47,884 bases of DNA from Escherichia phage ZL19. The translations under genes were made by a program, and so were the position numbers. The notes below the pieces were generated by a model. It did not search any database. It was not told where the DNA came from and worked only from the letters and a program-made list of their open reading frames with translations. The DNA is taken from sequence record OM258170. The stretch is one strand, 5' to 3'. Positions 1 through 43,653 of the stretch are shown here, piece by piece. Positions within the stretch are counted from its first letter, which is position 1. Each line of letters begins with the position of its first letter.

Positions 1-45
1 AGCTGACGCGTAATCGCCGTAGCGCGATGTAAGCCAACGCCTATC

Positions 46-83
46 GTTACGCTAGTTACGCGCAGCTACGCCCAGACTTACAC
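46..83. repeat. GTTACGC-type iteron-like repeats
   Basis: GTTACGC at 46-52 and 55-61, GCTACGC 65-71, CTTACAC 77-83. Confidence 0.5.
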
Positions 84-94
84 TATAAGTGCCT

Positions 95-146
95 AATATA
101 TATATATATCTTCTTTCTATTATTATTATTATTATTAATATTATTG
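95..146. repeat. (TA)n and (ATT)n microsatellite, AT-rich
   Basis: ATATATATATATAT followed by 5x ATT. Confidence 0.8.
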
Positions 147-284
147 TATGTAAGTCGTGTAACGGGGGTCTCGGCGATATTTATATGTTTTTTCCTCTCA
201 GTTATAGCCTTGTCTATAATTTAGGATATGGGGGGTGTTTTTGGGCTATTTGCCTCGTTACACGCACGACACGCTACTTACACC

Positions 285-309
285 GAGCTATAGCTGGGCT
301 GAAATGCCA
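285..309. repeat. conserved 25-bp box with AGCTATAGCT palindrome (copy 1)
   Basis: GAGCTATAGCTGGGCTGAAATGCCA, 24/25 identical to 30410-30434. Confidence 0.8.
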
Positions 310-348
310 TTTCGCGTAACGACCCCTCAAAGTTACCAAAAATTACAC

Positions 349-377
349 TTGACTACATGTGTAAGTCGGGATATGAT
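349..377 (+). promoter_or_regulatory. sigma70-like promoter TTGACT-17-TATGAT
   Basis: TTGACT 349-354, 17-nt spacer, TATGAT 372-377, ~30 nt upstream of first gene. Confidence 0.6.
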
Positions 378-408
378 GGACTCAACTTAAACGAGAGGAG
401 TGATAGAA

Positions 409-888
409 ATGAACGAGAAAGTAACATTAGGCCAAGTGATTCGTGAGATGGTGAAAGCAGCGCTTAAGTCTGAGGACAAGCAAATCAGCGTGACGCTCAA
501 CAAGATTGAGAGCCTTATTGGCGCTGAGGAGGGCGGTCTACATAAGCTTAAAAGCTCATACATCTATAATACGACGGCTCGCATGCCAGAGCTGAGAGAT
601 GCAGGGCTGAAGGCAACTCACTATTATGATGAGGATGAGGGTGATAGTGAGTTTGGTGAAACCACTCTAGCTGGAGACAAAAAGCTTGTTATTAAGCTGA
701 TTCCAGGCTCAGCAAACATTGGAATCAGGAAGAAGACCAACGACGCGATCAAGGATGAGGCAATCACTGAGTTCAAGGCGAAGATTTCTAAGGTGATGCC
801 AGACATTTCGGAGTATGAGGGTGAGGCGCTTACCGCGGCTATGAAGGCCATCAAGGATTACCGTTTAATTATCGATGATATTAAGTAA
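409..888 (+). CDS. hypothetical early protein (acidic)
   Basis: Track ORF 400..888 starts at GTG; in-frame ATG 409 has RBS GAGAGGAG 9 nt upstream. Confidence 0.5.
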   Translation: MNEKVTLGQVIREMVKAALKSEDKQISVTLNKIESLIGAEEGGLHKLKSSYIYNTTARMPELRDAGLKATHYYDEDEGDSEFGETTLAGDKKLVIKLIPGSANIGIRKKTNDAIKDEAITEFKAKISKVMPDISEYEGEALTAAMKAIKDYRLIIDDIK

Positions 889-964
889 TGCTTGACTTCA
901 ACTAGGACAAATTGACGACAAGGCATCTTGCGAGGTGCCTCAATAAGACAACTGGAGATAAAAC

Positions 965-1159
965 ATGAAAACTAAAATGGTACACAAGAGCGAAGTTAAG
1001 ATTGGGGATACTGTTATTCATCGTGGCTATCTTAGAACTGTAAACGCCAACACTTTTAGTGAGGATGAGTTTATGGGCCTACTCCTTTGGGGTGACTCCT
1101 ACCAACTTGGGCAGGAGAAGGTTGAGGTGATAATTGATGTTAAGCAGGCAAATTGCTAA
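965..1159 (+). CDS. hypothetical protein (64 aa)
   Basis: ORF with GGAGA RBS. Confidence 0.45.
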   Translation: MKTKMVHKSEVKIGDTVIHRGYLRTVNANTFSEDEFMGLLLWGDSYQLGQEKVEVIIDVKQANC

Positions 1160-1227
1160 ACAATGGATCGGGTAGTCAGCTATGATTACCCCATAGACAA
1201 CAAAGAGAAAGTATTGAGGATTGTAGG

Positions 1228-1491
1228 ATGAAACGTTTAATGAAATGCATGACTATTATTGCGGCAATGGTTGATCTTACTGGCTGCAAGAAGGTGTCGG
1301 AGGTTCAGATTCAGTCAGGTGAGTTCAATGTGGAGCGTCTATTCACAGTGGATGGATGTACCGCCTACCGATTCCTAGATAACGGTAGAACCGTCTACTA
1401 CACAAATTGCCATGGCAGTACGCAGAGTGAGTGCAATTCAGGCAAGGTCATGAAACAAGAAACAGTTCAGACAAATAGCACTAATTGGTAA
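1228..1491 (+). CDS. putative lipoprotein (signal peptide ending LTGC)
   Basis: N-terminal hydrophobic segment with lipobox-like LTGC; GAGGA RBS. Confidence 0.45.
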   Translation: MKRLMKCMTIIAAMVDLTGCKKVSEVQIQSGEFNVERLFTVDGCTAYRFLDNGRTVYYTNCHGSTQSECNSGKVMKQETVQTNSTNW

Positions 1492-1548
1492 AAAGGGATC
1501 ATCCTGACTGGTATAATCCACACATCAGCCACACTAAATGGTAGCAAT

Positions 1549-2001
1549 ATGAGAAAGGTAGATGAATTAATAATAATGATAAGTAGGCAAACGGATGATT
1601 GTATAGAGTGGAATAACTCAAGGACCGTTGATGGATATGGCCAGGTAAGATATGCTGGAACAACTAGAAGGGCGCACAAAGTAGCTTACTGCATAAGCAA
1701 TGATATAGATTATGAATGCGTAAAAGGTGTAATAATGCATTCATGCGATAATCCTTCTTGCATTAATCCAAAGCACCTATCGGTAGGTAGTCAGCATGAT
1801 AACGTGATTGATTGCGTATCAAAGGGCAGGTTCCGAAGCGTTGAGGGGCTTAAGAACCCGAAGTCAATAGTAACCATCGAAGACTCAAGAAAGATGTTAA
1901 GAATGAGAACTGATGGCATGACCTATCAGGATATAGCTGACGCAATGGTCGTTGGCAAAAGCACAGCATACAGAGTGATAACTACAGGATACTTACTATG
2001 A
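1549..2001 (+). CDS. HNH homing endonuclease
   Basis: HNH-type His/Asn/Cys motifs (HSCDNPSCINPKHL, GSQHDN); start uncertain. Confidence 0.55.
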   Translation: MRKVDELIIMISRQTDDCIEWNNSRTVDGYGQVRYAGTTRRAHKVAYCISNDIDYECVKGVIMHSCDNPSCINPKHLSVGSQHDNVIDCVSKGRFRSVEGLKNPKSIVTIEDSRKMLRMRTDGMTYQDIADAMVVGKSTAYRVITTGYLL

Positions 2002-2537
2002 ATCAGCTATACACCATGATTAAACACCATTTAGAAACAGTTGCAGTCAATAAAAAAGTATACTGCTTTGATTTCGACGGCACTCTGTCAGACGGAACTC
2101 ACCGCCTGCATAAGCTGCCGACCAAGGATTTGCACCTCACTGAGTCATGGCTTGAATTTAACTCATTGAGCAAGTTCGATCAGCCATTCCAGGAAACGAT
2201 TGACGTAATGAATAGCCTATTCGCTTCCGGCGCTTTCATCATCGTACTCACTGGTCGATCTGATGCTGTTGTTGAGGAATCAACGCAATGGCTGCATGAT
2301 GCTGGCGCTAAATATAGCGTTCTGGTCATGCGCCAGGCTGATGATAACCGAAAGGATACGATCATCAAGGAAGAGTTTTTACGATACATTGGCTTGCACC
2401 GCATCACCGCAGCGTGGGATGATAGCGTGAGTGTTATAAAGCACTTCCGCAGCTTAGGCATTACCACGTATCAGGTATGTGACTATGGCGATAAACTACA
2501 CGCCGGACTCGGATCGCATGGCGTTCATCATAAGTGA
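1998..2537 (+). CDS. HAD-superfamily phosphatase-like protein
   Basis: HAD motif I FDFDGTL near N-terminus; ATGA overlap with upstream stop. Confidence 0.55.
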   Translation: MNQLYTMIKHHLETVAVNKKVYCFDFDGTLSDGTHRLHKLPTKDLHLTESWLEFNSLSKFDQPFQETIDVMNSLFASGAFIIVLTGRSDAVVEESTQWLHDAGAKYSVLVMRQADDNRKDTIIKEEFLRYIGLHRITAAWDDSVSVIKHFRSLGITTYQVCDYGDKLHAGLGSHGVHHK

Positions 2538-2655
2538 CGATATACGAACATAAATTCAGCAGCAGGGGTATTGATATGCTCCTGCACTATATAGACGAAA
2601 AATACGCAAGGCTAATGCTTAAGACGCATGGCGGCACAATAACGAGGATTAATAT

Positions 2656-2916
2656 ATGAGCAAGTACGACCGCAAAATCATTGGTATTGATGGCACGGTA
2701 ACAACAGTAGATGTTTATCGTGTTCTTGATGCTTTTGGCGTAACTGACCCAGCAACGCAGCACGCGGTAAAGAAGATGCTTTGTATGGGATTGCGTGGCC
2801 ACAAAGATTACTTAACTGATCTTAATGACTCTATTGAGTCACTACAGAAAGCTAAGGAGCTTTACTTGCAGAGGATGATTAGTGAATCGCCTAAATCAAT
2901 TCAGGCTGGTAAATAG
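2656..2916 (+). CDS. hypothetical protein (86 aa)
   Basis: ORF with GAGGA RBS; stop TAG lies inside downstream promoter palindrome. Confidence 0.45.
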   Translation: MSKYDRKIIGIDGTVTTVDVYRVLDAFGVTDPATQHAVKKMLCMGLRGHKDYLTDLNDSIESLQKAKELYLQRMISESPKSIQAGK

Positions 2917-2956
2917 CACGAATTGCTAAAACCGCTCCGGCGGTTTTAGTTATAGT
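2914..2956 (+). promoter_or_regulatory. palindrome-type promoter module (TAGCACGAATTGCTA + TATAGT -10)
   Basis: 15-bp palindrome 2914-2928, -10 TATAGT 2951-2956 (37 bp downstream), then leader and RBS. Confidence 0.55.
2929..2947 (+). terminator. intrinsic terminator hairpin inside promoter module
   Basis: AAACCGC-TCCG-GCGGTTTT hairpin with T-run. Confidence 0.5.
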
Positions 2957-2985
2957 TAGTTAACACCAAACGAGAGGAAAGAGAA

Positions 2986-3078
2986 ATGAAGCAATACCCA
3001 TCAAGCAATCACCATAACGGTCACATCATGCAGTTCTACCGCCACAATCTGAAGACTAAGGGAGTATTTGGAAAATGA
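2986..3078 (+). CDS. small ORF (30 aa)
   Basis: ATG with GAGAGGAAAGAG RBS directly after promoter module; ATGA overlap with next gene; below track cutoff. Confidence 0.3.
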
Positions 3079-3371
3079 TTACAATTAACCTATCAGATAA
3101 AGACGCCGCAATCCTGAAGAGCATAGCTCAATTCAGTAACTCCAGCCCATTCGAGCAGATGAGGGTTGCCAAAGAGGTCGTGGCGCAGATTAATAACCAG
3201 CAGTTCGACGTCGGCGAATTCGAGTCATCACGTCAGTACGAGTCGCTTAGCGTGCAGAGTGCAGGGTTCATACCAAAGAGCGAGTTCACTAAAGGGAAGG
3301 GGTGGAGCATGAAAAAATCGCAGTCAGAATACTCATACCTAGATAACTGGGATAAGGCGAATAAGAAATGA
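3075..3371 (+). CDS. hypothetical protein (98 aa)
   Basis: ORF translationally coupled to upstream small ORF. Confidence 0.45.
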
Positions 3372-3556
3372 AAGATATTAAAACCACAGATCGAAGCGAT
3401 GACCCCCTAATGTTCCAGGTTGACAGCAAGACAACGAAAGAGCACATGAATAAACTGGAGTCATTTGGGATTGATGTTGGCGCATCGAAAGCAACATATG
3501 CCGATAAAATAATCAAATCAGCCATTCAATATGATGTTGGGTTCGGAGAGGGCTGA
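3368..3556 (+). CDS. hypothetical protein (62 aa)
   Basis: ORF with ATGA start/stop overlap. Confidence 0.4.
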   Translation: MKDIKTTDRSDDPLMFQVDSKTTKEHMNKLESFGIDVGASKATYADKIIKSAIQYDVGFGEG

Positions 3557-3559
3557 AGG

Positions 3560-3697
3560 ATGATTTACATTCACACTTACTACACAGGTAAGTTTAACAG
3601 CGTCAAGCATGTTCGCGTGCATGATAGCTACGAGAGTGCAAAGGCGCAATGGCTTATTCTTGGCGGTGACATTAATTCATATAGAGTCGCTGAATAG
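3560..3697 (+). CDS. small ORF (45 aa)
   Basis: ATG 3560 with GGAGAGGG RBS; stop TAG inside next promoter palindrome. Confidence 0.3.
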   Translation: MIYIHTYYTGKFNSVKHVRVHDSYESAKAQWLILGGDINSYRVAE

Positions 3698-3737
3698 CAC
3701 GAATTGCTAAAGCAGTATTGGGGTAATCTGATATAGT
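3695..3737 (+). promoter_or_regulatory. palindrome-type promoter module
   Basis: TAGCACGAATTGCTA 3695-3709; TG-n-TATAGT 3729-3737; TACCCCATTGAAACGAG leader. Confidence 0.55.
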
Positions 3738-3768
3738 TACCCCATTGAAACGAGATGAGGAATTGGAA

Positions 3769-4086
3769 ATGAAAGATCTTAGAATGTTTACTGTTTTTGT
3801 TGCAGTGGATGATGTTGATGGCGAAAATTCATTCTTTGTTTTCGAGCACGAAAAAGTAGCGGAATGGGAAAGATACTATTCTTATGTTGTTTTACCTGTA
3901 TCCGTGTTTGAAGGTCAATATATAATCGATAAGATAGGTAAGTTAAAGGAATACATCATGAAGGAAAAGAAATGCGAATGGCCTGAGATCAACAAGAGGA
4001 AAAGAATGAACGATATGGTTAATCCAATAATGGTTTGCTCATTTGCTATTGATGAATCTAAAAGTGATGATGGGGTAAAAAGATGA
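3769..4086 (+). CDS. hypothetical protein (105 aa)
   Basis: Track ORF 3745..4086 starts at TTG; ATG 3769 has GAGGA RBS. Confidence 0.45.
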   Translation: MKDLRMFTVFVAVDDVDGENSFFVFEHEKVAEWERYYSYVVLPVSVFEGQYIIDKIGKLKEYIMKEKKCEWPEINKRKRMNDMVNPIMVCSFAIDESKSDDGVKR

Positions 4087-4122
4087 ATAGCGACCAAATA
4101 TTTGACATGATGATGAGTCAAT

Positions 4123-4329
4123 GTGAAGAGGTTGGTAAAAAAAATGGCAATGCGATTCCACCAATCAGAACCCAAGCTCCAGGCCAACCACTTCGACGGC
4201 TACGCGACATTCATCATTGCCCAGGCTTGCGGGATGCGTGACGAGCCACAGGTTCACACCATCCACTTAACAGAAGAACAGGCTCGAGAGTTGGCCTACG
4301 AAATTCTAGAGCAATTGAACCGAATTTAA
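4123..4329 (+). CDS. hypothetical protein (start uncertain: GTG 4123 or ATG 4144)
   Basis: Protein-like frame; a competing 52-codon frame from ATG 4083 is Pro/Arg-rich and looks non-coding. Confidence 0.35.
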   Translation: MKRLVKKMAMRFHQSEPKLQANHFDGYATFIIAQACGMRDEPQVHTIHLTEEQARELAYEILEQLNRI

Positions 4330-5422: not shown

Positions 5423-5500
5423 GCTCTGCTAGCTCAACAGGATAGCAGCAACGACCTTCTAAGTCGTAGGTTACTGGTTCGAATCCAGTGCGGAGCGCCA
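5423..5500 (+). tRNA. tRNA-Arg (anticodon UCU), CCA encoded
   Basis: 7-bp acceptor stem GCTCTGC/GCGGAGC, anticodon stem ACGAC/GTCGT with loop CTTCTAA, T-arm ACTGG-TTCGAAT-CCAGT, GG in D-loop; D-arm atypical (3-bp stem, long loop). Confidence 0.7.
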
Positions 5501-42271: not shown

Positions 42272-42448
42272 ATGACCAAGATGATTTATTGCACAAAGAA
42301 CAACTCCAAGACCCTGCCATTTACAGTTAACCAGCCGTACAATGCAGAGTACCAGGGTGATGGATATTACAAGATTTACAGCGACGATATGACGTGGATT
42401 TTAGCGCCGATTGAAGGTTCACTGGTTGAATTTATTATCGCTGACTAG
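42272..42448 (+). CDS. small ORF (58 aa)
   Basis: ATG with GAGGAAACACAAG RBS after promoter module; below track cutoff. Confidence 0.35.
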   Translation: MTKMIYCTKNNSKTLPFTVNQPYNAEYQGDGYYKIYSDDMTWILAPIEGSLVEFIIAD

Positions 42449-42474: not shown

Positions 42475-42500
42475 GGGGAGCCTTTGGGCTCCCTTTTTTT
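42475..42500 (+). terminator. intrinsic terminator upstream of lysis cassette
   Basis: GGGGAGCC-TTTG-GGCTCCC hairpin plus T7. Confidence 0.7.
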
Positions 42501-42578
42501 GTGCTTCTTTTACGAGCAGGGCTAATGTATCATTCTTTTACTAACTTAAACATTGACAAATACATAAAGGTGGATCAC

Positions 42579-42794
42579 ATGAGGGAAGTAATCAACGCCG
42601 CTACGGCATCAACTGGCGGTGCTGCGGTAACTGGCGCGGCAACTGGTCAAATGACTATAGCAATAATCAGCCTTATCGCTCTAATCATTTTTGGAGCTTG
42701 GGGTGCTTACTGGAAGTATAAGGATAGCCAGGCAATTCGACGAGCGCTTGAATCAAGGGATTTAAAGACGGCAATCAAGATAAGGAGCAGGTAA
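42579..42794 (+). CDS. holin (pinholin-like)
   Basis: 72 aa; Gly/Ala-rich weak TM1 and strong TM2 then charged tail; abuts endolysin start; track ORF starts at upstream GTG. Confidence 0.55.
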   Translation: MREVINAATASTGGAAVTGAATGQMTIAIISLIALIIFGAWGAYWKYKDSQAIRRALESRDLKTAIKIRSR

Positions 42795-43280
42795 ATGAAG
42801 CAGAAGCTGGTAGTTGGTGCTGCGACCGCTGCGGCAATATACATCGCAGCGCCGCTTATTGAGCTTGTAGAGGGTGTTGAGAATAGGCCTTACATGGACA
42901 TTGCTGGGGTGAAAACTGTTTGTGCTGGCGTAACTGGTCCTGACGTAGTTTGGGGTAAGACTTACAGTAACAGGGAGTGCCGGAACCTGCTGGAGAAACA
43001 CATTCAGATTCATGGGAAGCATGTTCAGGATGCAGTTACCTACCCAATTTCACCGCAGACAAGAGCGGCGTTAATCAGCTTTAGCTACAATGTTGGTGGT
43101 CATGCTATGAAGAACTCAACAGCAGTTCGACTTATTAACCAGGGTAAAGTGGAGCAGGGTTGCAGGGCTCTCGGGGTGTGGAATAAAGCTACCATTAACG
43201 GCAAGAAGGTTGTGGTTAAGGGGTTGGTAAATCGCAGGAATGAGGAGATTAAGTTATGCTTAAGTGGATTGCAGCGTTAG
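42795..43280 (+). CDS. SAR endolysin (lysozyme)
   Basis: N-terminal signal-anchor-release-like TM; PYMDIAGVKTVCAGVTG...GKTYSNRECRNLL resembles phage 21 R-type lysozymes. Confidence 0.8.
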   Translation: MKQKLVVGAATAAAIYIAAPLIELVEGVENRPYMDIAGVKTVCAGVTGPDVVWGKTYSNRECRNLLEKHIQIHGKHVQDAVTYPISPQTRAALISFSYNVGGHAMKNSTAVRLINQGKVEQGCRALGVWNKATINGKKVVVKGLVNRRNEEIKLCLSGLQR

Positions 43281-43645
43281 TAATGTGCGTAGCTTTATCT
43301 GGATGTTCAGCAACATCCGCGCTGACCGGATTAATTGGCAGCAAGCCAGAGATTAGCGCCCAGGCTGGCGCTGAGAACAATAAGGTTGGTGTTGGGTTAA
43401 CGAACAAGGTTGACTCAAGTAACTCAAGTGAAGCCACGGTTAAAGATTCTAAGGTTGGGTCACTGGATAGCTCGAGCGGGAAAAAGACTGCTGACAACTC
43501 GATTAAGGCCTCAACAATCACTGCTGAAAAGATTGAGATCACAAATAACGAATCATCAGCGCTTCCGTGGGTCGGAACAGGAGCAATGGGGTTGCTGGTT
43601 CTTATTCTCATGGCATTAATCTTAAGACGTAAAAAAGCCCCCTAA
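43256..43645 (+). CDS. unimolecular spanin (T1 gp11-like)
   Basis: N-terminal lipoprotein signal (LSGC) plus C-terminal TM followed by RRKK; overlaps endolysin 3' end. Confidence 0.7.
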   Translation: MLKWIAALVMCVALSGCSATSALTGLIGSKPEISAQAGAENNKVGVGLTNKVDSSNSSEATVKDSKVGSLDSSSGKKTADNSIKASTITAEKIEITNNESSALPWVGTGAMGLLVLILMALILRRKKAP

Positions 43646-43653
43646 TGGGGGCT
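43636..43653. terminator. bidirectional terminator
   Basis: AGCCCCC-TAAT-GGGGGCT hairpin between convergent genes. Confidence 0.5.

Follow-up and report, generated by a model that had tools for sequence, protein, structure and literature searches.

The lysis cassette of the Rtp-like Escherichia phage ZL19: a predicted holin, SAR endolysin and unimolecular spanin of T1 type

The locus and its borders

The stretch of DNA analysed, referred to here as the window, comprises 47,884 nucleotides of Escherichia phage ZL19 (sequence record OM258170). The list of open reading frames and the sequence place three co-directional, close-packed plus-strand genes between two terminator hairpins (Table 1), and their outer coordinates, 42579-43645, are exactly those assigned to a lysis cassette in the first-pass annotation. 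The endolysin gene starts directly after the holin stop codon, and the spanin gene overlaps the endolysin gene by 25 nt in a different frame. The holin matches phrog_2877 (holin; 6e-36, positions 1-71 of the 71 in the profile), the endolysin matches PF00959 (Phage_lysozyme, 1.6e-34) and the PHROG endolysin profile (4e-47), and the spanin matches phrog_1804 (Rz-like spanin, 3.7e-50). Because of these matches, the cassette cannot be attributed to chance. Gene structure, homology, motifs and hydropathy are observed properties of the cassette. Transmembrane segments, signals and the lipobox were called by homology, with two hydropathy scales and with a regular expression for the lipobox; Kyte-Doolittle values are 17-residue means, and Hessa values are sums of apparent free energies over 17 residues.

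Table 1. Features of the lysis locus and its immediate surroundings (window coordinates)
Feature	Position	Strand	Details
DUF7244 gene (standalone SH3-like), T1 gp14 homologue	42272..42448	+	PF23896, 4.7e-29
Terminator-like hairpin, Rho-independent	42475..42500	+	8-bp G+C-rich stem and T7, upstream of the holin gene
Holin leader, candidate promoter region	42501..42578	+	Ends in Shine-Dalgarno AAAGGTGGA
Holin, T1 gp13 family, 71 aa	42579..42794	+	ATG 42579, TAA 42794; Shine-Dalgarno AAAGGTGGA
R21-type SAR endolysin (GH24 muramidase), predicted, 161 aa	42795..43280	+	ATG 42795; GGAG upstream
Unimolecular spanin, T1 gp11 family, 129 aa	43256..43645	+	ATG 43256, TAA 43645; GGAG upstream
Bidirectional terminator hairpin	43636..43653	.	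AGCCCCC-TAAT-GGGGGCT; loop holds the spanin stop codon

The upstream hairpin was found by a terminator scan and folds as RNA with -20.4 kcal/mol (z -4.4). It sits between the DUF7244 gene and the lysis cassette and separates the two. The leader that follows is almost invariant in the alignment of Rtp-like phages, and the record of phage SU57 carries a BPROM-predicted promoter in the matching region. A scan of the DNA from the upstream terminator to the start of the holin gene found no plus-strand site with the sigma-70 consensus, and a promoter function of the leader is therefore reached by inference only. The downstream hairpin is matched by the scan on both strands, with folds of -15.8 and -15.9 kcal/mol; it ends the lysis operon as well as the minus-strand unit converging on it.

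The DUF7244 protein is 44% identical to T1 gp14, and a 2026 paper (PMC13164509) proposes an accessory role for it in the lysis module of Drexlerviridae; its gene is a neighbour of the cassette and not an established part of it. Three antisense or embedded open reading frames, 43249-43611 (-), 42762-43022 (-) and 43410-43619 (+), were considered as genes and, since they have no family matches, are treated as spurious. An Rfam search of the cassette region returned no match.

The records of related phages differ in the start codons that they choose. Some of them place the holin start 18 codons upstream, and the spanin of Rtp is annotated to begin 9 codons late. These alternative starts are supported neither by conservation nor by what a lipoprotein signal needs. 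The IME253 RefSeq and OzMSK records have a longer holin, of 89 or 97 residues from ATG 42525 or GTG 42501; this version was rejected. SU57 has CTG at the position of ATG 42525 together with a frame-breaking 1-nt indel, T1 has unrelated sequence upstream of its holin start and no equivalent of ATG 42525, and of the longer frame only the final 71 residues are matched by the holin PHROG profile. In the alignment of relatives, ATG 42579 is the single conserved start. The open frame of 18 codons that precedes it is not significant.

The holin and the pinholin label

The holin contains two uncharged segments joined through a single residue, Q24. The first (residues 4-23, nt 42588-42647) is rich in Gly, Ala and Thr, with 76% Gly/Ala/Ser/Thr, and is weakly hydrophobic (Kyte-Doolittle 0.95; Hessa sum over residues 4-20, +6.1), which is the character of a SAR-like segment. 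The second (residues 25-45, nt 42651-42713) is a strong transmembrane domain (TMD), with a Kyte-Doolittle value of 2.48 and a Hessa sum of -2.0. Residues 46-71 form a basic tail with a net charge of about +6, which is presumably cytoplasmic.

The first-pass annotation had named this protein a pinholin, pointing to a weak Gly/Ala-rich TM1 followed by a strong TM2. The pattern is as described; the name is a prediction by analogy. The same name is repeated for T1-type holins in published annotations, which describe T1-like cassettes as pinholin, SAR endolysin and u-spanin (PMC4559738, PMC4319613, PMC11447400, PMC13164509). A search of the literature found no experimental test of any T1-type holin or endolysin, and of the T1-type lysis proteins only gp11 has been tested.

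The analogy is with the pinholin S21 and its homologue EssD. TMD1 of EssD has a Kyte-Doolittle value of 0.56 and a Hessa sum of +7.0, against 0.95 and +6.1 in the N-terminal segment of the holin, and its Gly/Ala/Ser/Thr content is 53%, against 76%. The two proteins have no sequence similarity (BLASTP E 0.98), and the copy of Pfam that was searched contained no S21-holin or other holin family match for the window protein. At most, then, the holin is an analogue of S21/EssD in function; it does not belong to the S21 family.

It is possible, though rather unlikely, that the holin crosses the membrane only once, with its N-terminus out and its C-terminus in. The Gly/Ala/Thr helix would then be periplasmic from the start, and the protein might open large holes or work through some mechanism peculiar to it, with the endolysin and the spanin working as described below. 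The absence of relationship to S21/EssD is consistent with such an arrangement, and so is the single residue between the two segments. An AlphaFold2 (AF2) model built from an 11-sequence alignment gives one continuous helix from residue 2 to 58, and a note on gp13 in the T1 GenBank record reads 'single transmembrane domain'. A comparison with SU57 and T1 found no conserved dual start, and hence no dual-start antiholin, in the holin gene. SAR endolysins are, moreover, known to work with holins that are not pinholins, as Lyz, the SAR endolysin of phage P1, does with the holin LydA.

Several observations argue against a single pass. Throughout the small family the N-terminus keeps an uncharged stretch of about 17-20 residues with charged or polar residues at both edges, as a membrane segment would. 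In composition and hydropathy this stretch matches TMD1 of the S21 family, which is a proven SAR-type segment. The residues A7, S11, A15, G19 and G23 form a small-xxx-small ladder, typical of helices that pack against each other in membranes. The Center for Phage Technology (CPT) annotates the protein as a class II holin with two TMDs. The AF2 model is of low confidence in the part that matters here, with pLDDT of 56-58 in the first 20 residues.

A further proposal, somewhat more doubtful than the single pass, is that the T1-type holins (PF27028 / phrog_2877) might constitute a separate type of small holin instead of being S21-like hairpin pinholins. In such proteins a conserved N-terminal Gly/Ala/Thr helix with the small-xxx-small pattern would lead through an invariant A-T-G-Q junction into the sole stable TMD, and triggering and hole formation would follow a course not yet described. 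Very few proteins belong to the family: a search of 1.84 billion cluster representatives gave 10 matches at E<=0.001, about eight of them full-length relatives, and with only 10 representatives returned by an exhaustive search for distant relatives a deep alignment cannot be built.

The endolysin and the spanin

The closest PDB matches of the endolysin are the prototype SAR endolysins RrrD (4zpu, 5e-27) and R21 (3hde, 2e-26). Its N-terminal segment (residues 5-22, nt 42807-42860; LVVGAATAAAIYIAAPLI) is uncharged and follows K2 and K4. It has a Kyte-Doolittle value of 2.02, a Hessa sum over residues 6-22 of +2.0 and 53% Gly/Ala/Ser/Thr; the corresponding values for the SAR segment of RrrD are 2.29, +0.15 and 59%. 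The triad E26-x8-D35-x5-T41 (nt 42870-42917) is invariant with respect to T1 gp12 and RrrD. Cysteines occur at positions 43, 62, 123 and 155 only; the SAR segment has none, unlike those of the disulfide-regulated types P1 Lyz and Lyz103.

The positively charged K2/K4 region followed by a hydrophobic stretch is what any Sec signal would have, and the segment might thus be a cleavable signal peptide or a permanent anchor. Such a role is improbable. The only Ala-x-Ala-like site after the core, I17-A18-A19, precedes Pro20, and signal peptidase I is blocked by Pro at +1. The segment, rich in small residues, is less hydrophobic than the SAR domain of RrrD, and the alignment with R21/RrrD begins inside it: phmmer aligns endolysin residues 8-160 with residues 16-165 of RrrD and R21. 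The segment ends only 4 residues before the catalytic Glu. If it were cleaved off or stayed anchored for good, the active site would therefore probably be disturbed, in line with the mechanism of R21. The earlier identification of a SAR endolysin with lysozyme motifs is thus borne out by homology to structurally characterised proteins that extends into the N-terminal segment, and the N-terminal TM segment on which it depended is present by hydropathy.

The spanin begins with a lipoprotein signal, MLKWIAALVMCVA-LSGC17-S, in which the regular expression recognises the lipobox L14-S-G-C17 (nt 43295-43306). Ser occupies the +2 position, and the lack of Asp there corresponds to outer-membrane sorting. 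The lipobox is invariant in the alignment of relatives; it is identical to the LSGC lipobox of T1 gp11, which has been tested experimentally (PMC6139136). A periplasmic domain of about residues 18-103 is followed by a C-terminal TMD at about 105-123 (nt 43568-43624; Kyte-Doolittle 2.46 and Hessa sum -1.8 for residues 106-122) and the basic tail RRKKAP. On the Hessa scale, the putatively releasable N-terminal segments of endolysin and holin have positive sums, and the permanent anchors, TMD2 of the holin and the TMD of the spanin, have negative ones. An AF2 model from the single sequence has helices at 2-27 and 106-127, the latter with pLDDT of about 82, and low-confidence coil, with pLDDT of 45-54, at residues 28-105. 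For this domain of the gp11 family a short helix and then four or more beta strands have been described (Kongari et al. 2018, PMC6139136), and the model does not reproduce the beta-rich fold.

The protein is 98% identical to that of Rtp, and Table 5 of Kongari et al. 2018 (PMC6139136) places phage RTP in the u-spanin family of T1 gp11. The first-pass reading of a gp11-type unimolecular spanin, made from a lipoprotein signal together with a C-terminal TM segment, therefore holds; hydropathy confirms the latter. It is highly improbable that the product of the third gene is a lipoprotein of different function, such as Cor-like superinfection exclusion. Phage lipoproteins of similar size do include exclusion factors, and the NCBIfam spanin model scores only 21.5 bits, far under its cut-off of 80. 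Against this stand the clear homology to T1 gp11 and phrog_1804, and the combination of an outer-membrane lipobox with a C-terminal inner-membrane helix, which is what a periplasm-spanning protein needs. The gene is the last of the lysis genes, and the cassette contains no separate i-spanin/o-spanin pair of Rz/Rz1 type. In addition, T1 gp11 complements lambda Rz/Rz1 mutants (PMC6139136).

A proposed stepwise lysis pathway and its relation to known systems

By combining these observations, a course of lysis can be proposed, in which the topology of the proteins, their release, the size of the holes and the timing are predicted ones. The cassette very probably serves an Rtp-like coliphage of the Drexlerviridae as its late lysis operon, in which the holin, SAR endolysin and u-spanin would act one after the other. 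The holin would accumulate in the inner membrane, trigger at a programmed time and collapse the membrane potential, probably by small holes of the pinholin type that form when the weak Gly/Ala/Thr N-terminal helix exits the bilayer. Until then the endolysin, exported by the Sec system, would stay inactive at the periplasmic face, tethered by its SAR segment. Judging by R21/RrrD, depolarisation would allow this segment to leave the membrane, the enzyme would refold as R21 does, and the E26/D35/T41 site would cut the peptidoglycan. The spanin would be lipoylated at Cys17 and sorted to the outer membrane, its C-terminal helix remaining in the inner membrane; with its lipid in one membrane and its helix in the other, it would therefore bridge the periplasm. 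Once the meshwork of the wall is gone, it could bring about fusion of the two membranes and in this way disrupt the outer one, a function that has been shown for its homologue T1 gp11.

The holin/lysozyme/spanin cassette is a textbook T1-like arrangement that is already known. Its identification confirms that the window belongs to an Rtp-like Drexlerviridae phage with a standard T1-type lysis module, fixes the best-supported starts of the 71-residue holin and the 129-residue spanin, and draws attention to the fact that a widely copied label for T1-type holins, 'pinholin', derives only from analogy. It has little significance beyond correct annotation.

The nearest relative is vB_EcoS-IME253 (NC_047810; Rtpvirus, Braunvirinae, Drexlerviridae), from which the cassette DNA differs in one base out of 1301 (about 99.9% identity): position 42756 is A in the window and G in IME253, a Gly to Arg change at holin residue 60. 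Identity of the cassette DNA to Rtp, JeanPiccard, SU57 and OzMSK is about 87-91%, Rtp reaching 91%. IME253 and Rtp (rtp63-65) have the same gene order, overlaps and terminators, and their records annotate a holin, an endolysin and an Rz-like spanin; across the records of all five phages the cassette appears as holin, (SAR) endolysin and u-spanin. Over most of the window, identity is 98.5-99.9% to IME253 and about 89-91% to Rtp. It is this genome-wide similarity, and not the cassette, that secures the assignment to Drexlerviridae. The first-pass annotation had taken the cassette as support for a T1-like phage. This is correct at the level of the family, and the cassette by itself is not diagnostic, the gp11 family being wider. 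KP34, F19 and NTUH-K2044-K1-1 are Klebsiella podophages. These are among the phages that also appear in Table 5 as members of the gp11 family (Kongari et al. 2018, PMC6139136).

All three genes have homologues in T1, in the same order: the holin is 59% identical to gp13 (E 5e-32), the endolysin 44% to gp12 (E 3e-43), with the same E-x8-D-x5-T triad, and the spanin 37% to gp11 over 126 residues (E 5e-25). T1 belongs to the subfamily Tunavirinae and the relatives of the window to Braunvirinae, both within Drexlerviridae. The neighbourhood is also shared, namely a DNA repair exonuclease gene, a DUF7244 gene, holin, endolysin, spanin, a terminator and converging minus-strand genes that include a helicase. 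Terminator-like hairpins flank the cassette on both sides in T1 as they do here; the T1 hairpin at the upstream position is in an equivalent place but is not homologous, and the annotated downstream terminator of T1 overlaps the end of gene 11. T1 differs from the window in having an HNH endonuclease inserted upstream, in an endolysin/spanin gene overlap of 1 nt instead of 25 nt, and in a spanin whose periplasmic domain and TMD have diverged.

The system of phage 21 and DLP12 is the likely mechanistic model for the holin and endolysin steps. R21(RrrD) is a true homologue of the endolysin (E about 1e-26), with the triad and the four Cys positions aligned, although the linker from the SAR segment to the catalytic Glu is 6 residues shorter in the window protein. 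S21(EssD) resembles the holin in size (71 residues) and in its weak-then-strong hydrophobic pattern, but its TMDs are separated by a loop of about 10 residues instead of a 1-residue junction. The phage 21/DLP12 system has a dual-start antiholin and an Rz/Rz1 pair, whereas the window has no dual start and a single-protein spanin.

With lambda S105-R-Rz/Rz1 the cassette shares the three-step logic and the order of holin, endolysin and spanin. The lambda components themselves are a large-hole holin with three TMDs, a cytoplasmic transglycosylase that has no export signal, and a two-component embedded spanin.

Cassette layout and flanking elements

The interval 42579-43645, read as a lysis cassette in the first-pass annotation, is filled exactly by three plus-strand genes, as seen both in the ORF list and in the raw sequence. 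The PHROGs and Pfam profile matches rule out a chance origin of these ORFs. The endolysin ORF begins directly next to the holin TAA, and the spanin ORF shares 25 nt with the endolysin ORF in a different frame. Good ribosome-binding sites are present at all three starts (AAAGGTGGA for the holin, GGAG for both the endolysin and the spanin). No family matches were found for opposite-strand and embedded ORFs in the cassette, and the Rfam scan gave no match in the cassette region.

Lysis genes, neighboring elements and the tRNA gene of the window
Feature	Position	Strand	Properties
tRNA-Arg (anticodon TCT)	5423-5500	+	sole Rfam or ARAGORN match in window
DUF7244 gene	42272-42448	+	58 aa; PF23896 4.7e-29; 44% identical to T1 gp14
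Upstream terminator hairpin	42475-42500		strong; -20.4 kcal/mol, z -4.4
Candidate late promoter or leader	42501-42578	+	78 bases
Holin	ATG 42579 to TAA 42794	+	71 aa; PHROGs holin 6e-36 over full profile
Endolysin	42795-43280	+	161 aa; PHROGs endolysin 4e-47; Pfam Phage_lysozyme 1.6e-34
Spanin	43256-43645	+	129 aa; PHROGs Rz-like spanin 4e-50
Bidirectional hairpin	43636-43653		spanin stop codon in loop

Public records differ in the start codons of the holin (window 42525) and the spanin (window 43256). The upstream ATG 42525, which gives an 89-residue holin in the records of Escherichia phage vB_EcoS-IME253 (IME253; RefSeq NC_047810) and the Rtp-like phage OzMSK (PQ659294), is not conserved. 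The 120-residue spanin of the Rtp record (NC_007603) starts 9 codons late, which would cut away most of the signal peptide; read from the equivalent start, the Rtp spanin is 98% identical to that of the window.

T1 has hairpins at both equivalent positions, but these are not homologous to those of the window. Rtp-like phages hardly vary in the stretch from the upstream terminator to the holin start, which is better conserved than the coding DNA on either side (about 87-91% identity). This near-invariance suggests a late promoter or leader. A consensus sigma-70 scan of this stretch found no plus-strand site; the record of the Rtp-like phage SU57 has a BPROM promoter annotated in its equivalent.

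In a 2026 proposal (PMC13164509), the standalone SH3-like DUF7244 protein belongs to the Drexlerviridae lysis module as an accessory. A terminator-like hairpin separates the DUF7244 gene from the holin gene in both the window and T1, and no signal peptide or TMD was seen when the protein sequence was read by eye. Both observations would fit awkwardly with a periplasmic wall-binding role.

Endolysin and spanin

The nearest solved structures to the endolysin are those of DLP12 RrrD (4zpu, 5e-27) and phage 21 R21 (3hde and 3hdf, ~1e-26), the prototype signal-anchor-release (SAR) endolysins, and the alignment starts at residue 8, within the N-terminal hydrophobic segment. This segment (residues 5-22, LVVGAATAAAIYIAAPLI) follows K2 and K4 and is 53% Gly/Ala/Ser/Thr. 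A crude sum of Hessa free energies gives +2.0 kcal/mol for it, compared to +0.15 for the RrrD SAR segment; the permanent anchors of the cassette sum to about -2. Endolysin E26-x8-D35-x5-T41 corresponds to the RrrD triad E35/D44/T50, which is invariant across the alignment of the window endolysin, Rtp, SU57, T1 gp12 and RrrD. The SAR segment, its homology to R21 and RrrD and the conserved triad support the proposed SAR endolysin with lysozyme motifs.

Since the SAR segment lacks Cys, the endolysin is of the R21 type, not the disulfide-regulated P1 Lyz type. Outside the segment, each of Cys43, Cys62, Cys123 and Cys155 has an aligned cysteine in T1 gp12 and in RrrD. A proline after an AxA-like site argues against signal peptidase cleavage; Pro20 directly follows the only such site in the endolysin, so cleavage is disfavored. 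We infer that the endolysin is released from the membrane.

At the N-terminus of the spanin, a short basic n-region and a hydrophobic core precede the lipobox L-S-G-C17, which has Ser at +2. T1 gp11 has an identical lipobox, which is the one manipulated experimentally (PMC6139136). The C-terminal hydrophobic helix (residues ~105-123; mean Kyte-Doolittle 2.46 over the 17 residues 106-122) is followed by RRKKAP. In the alignment, the lipobox, helix and tail are invariant in Rtp-like relatives and common to T1. The last gene, as proposed, encodes a lipoprotein signal together with a C-terminal TM, and is homologous to T1 gp11. The periplasmic domain of the gp11 family is reported to be beta-rich; the single-sequence AF2 model of the spanin reproduces the terminal helices alone.

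Holin topology and the proposed course of lysis

Several properties point in favor of two TMDs with a SAR-type first helix. The holin carries no charge in residues 4-23, of which 76% are Gly/Ala/Ser/Thr, and the hydropathy of this segment resembles that of TMD1 of EssD, the DLP12 homolog of the phage 21 pinholin S21 (Kyte-Doolittle 0.95 vs 0.56 in EssD; Hessa +6.1 vs +7.0). In every family member found, [KR][DE] borders the segment on its N-terminal side and Q or E on the other. The segment of this holin also carries a ladder of small residues (A7, S11, A15, G19 and G23). With 9 basic residues against 3 acidic ones, the C-terminal tail should be cytoplasmic.

Other observations are against this topology or neutral. 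Q24 alone separates the two segments, whereas EssD has ~10 residues there. AF2, run on an 11-sequence alignment, gives a single helix over residues 2-58 (N-terminal pLDDT 56-58), and the T1 record notes one TMD for its holin. Comparison with EssD found no similarity (E 0.98), and no dual start is conserved among the relatives compared. The family is very narrow: a search of 1.84 billion cluster representatives gave only 10 proteins with E<=0.001, and all 12 clusters matching in a 5.8-billion-sequence set are tagged PF27028.

T1-like holins are termed class II pinholins in PMC4559738, PMC4319613, PMC11447400, PMC13164509 and the OzMSK record, and all these labels are predictions. The weak Gly/Ala-rich segment described as TM1 in the first-pass annotation is present at residues 4-23, but the pinholin label, the one point where the interpretation outruns the evidence, is unproven. 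A pinholin-like function is predicted with moderate confidence. With that reservation, the original observation is confirmed and its interpretation supported.

The best-supported account of lysis would have three steps. Holin triggering would depolarize the inner membrane; the SAR endolysin would then be freed and refold, degrading the wall; finally, the u-spanin tethered to both membranes would disrupt the outer membrane. The experimental backing concerns the last step alone and comes from a homolog: T1 gp11 complements lambda Rz/Rz1 mutants (Kongari et al. 2018, PMC6139136).

Relationship to Rtp and T1

The cassette and its surroundings differ from IME253 by one mismatch in 1301 bases and are 91% identical to Rtp. 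The mismatch at 42756 (A in the window, G in IME253) changes holin Gly60 to Arg in the cytoplasmic tail; the other 10 of the 11 close family members aligned have Gly. Arg60 could be an allele for lysis timing or just a variant that is neutral or arose in sequencing.

The remainder of the window is 98.5% identical to IME253 where aligned and 89-91% to Rtp. In the first 24 kb, the listed IME253 match starts at 4170 (98.5% up to 24000) and the Rtp alignment at ~1215. With the IME253 record circularly permuted, window 1-4170 may be mosaic or may simply lie elsewhere in that record.

The records classify IME253 and Rtp as Rtpvirus, Braunvirinae, Drexlerviridae; T1 also belongs to Drexlerviridae, but to the subfamily Tunavirinae. 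We take KP34, F19 and NTUH-K2044-K1-1 to be Klebsiella podophages. These too are included in the gp11 u-spanin family (Table 5 of Kongari et al., PMC6139136), in which RTP was placed by the same authors. Judging from the sequence comparisons, the T1-like assignment is secured by genome-wide similarity, not by the cassette.

Placement in the T1-like group is correct at the family level, in agreement with taxonomy, protein homology and gene neighborhood. Identity to the T1 homologs is 59% for the holin (gp13), 44% for the endolysin (gp12) and 37% for the spanin (gp11). T1 and the window share the order DNA repair exonuclease, DUF7244 gene (T1 gp14), three lysis genes and terminator, beyond which both have converging minus-strand genes including a helicase. 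The cassette is already known, because it is nearly identical to an annotated one and the architecture of the family has been published.
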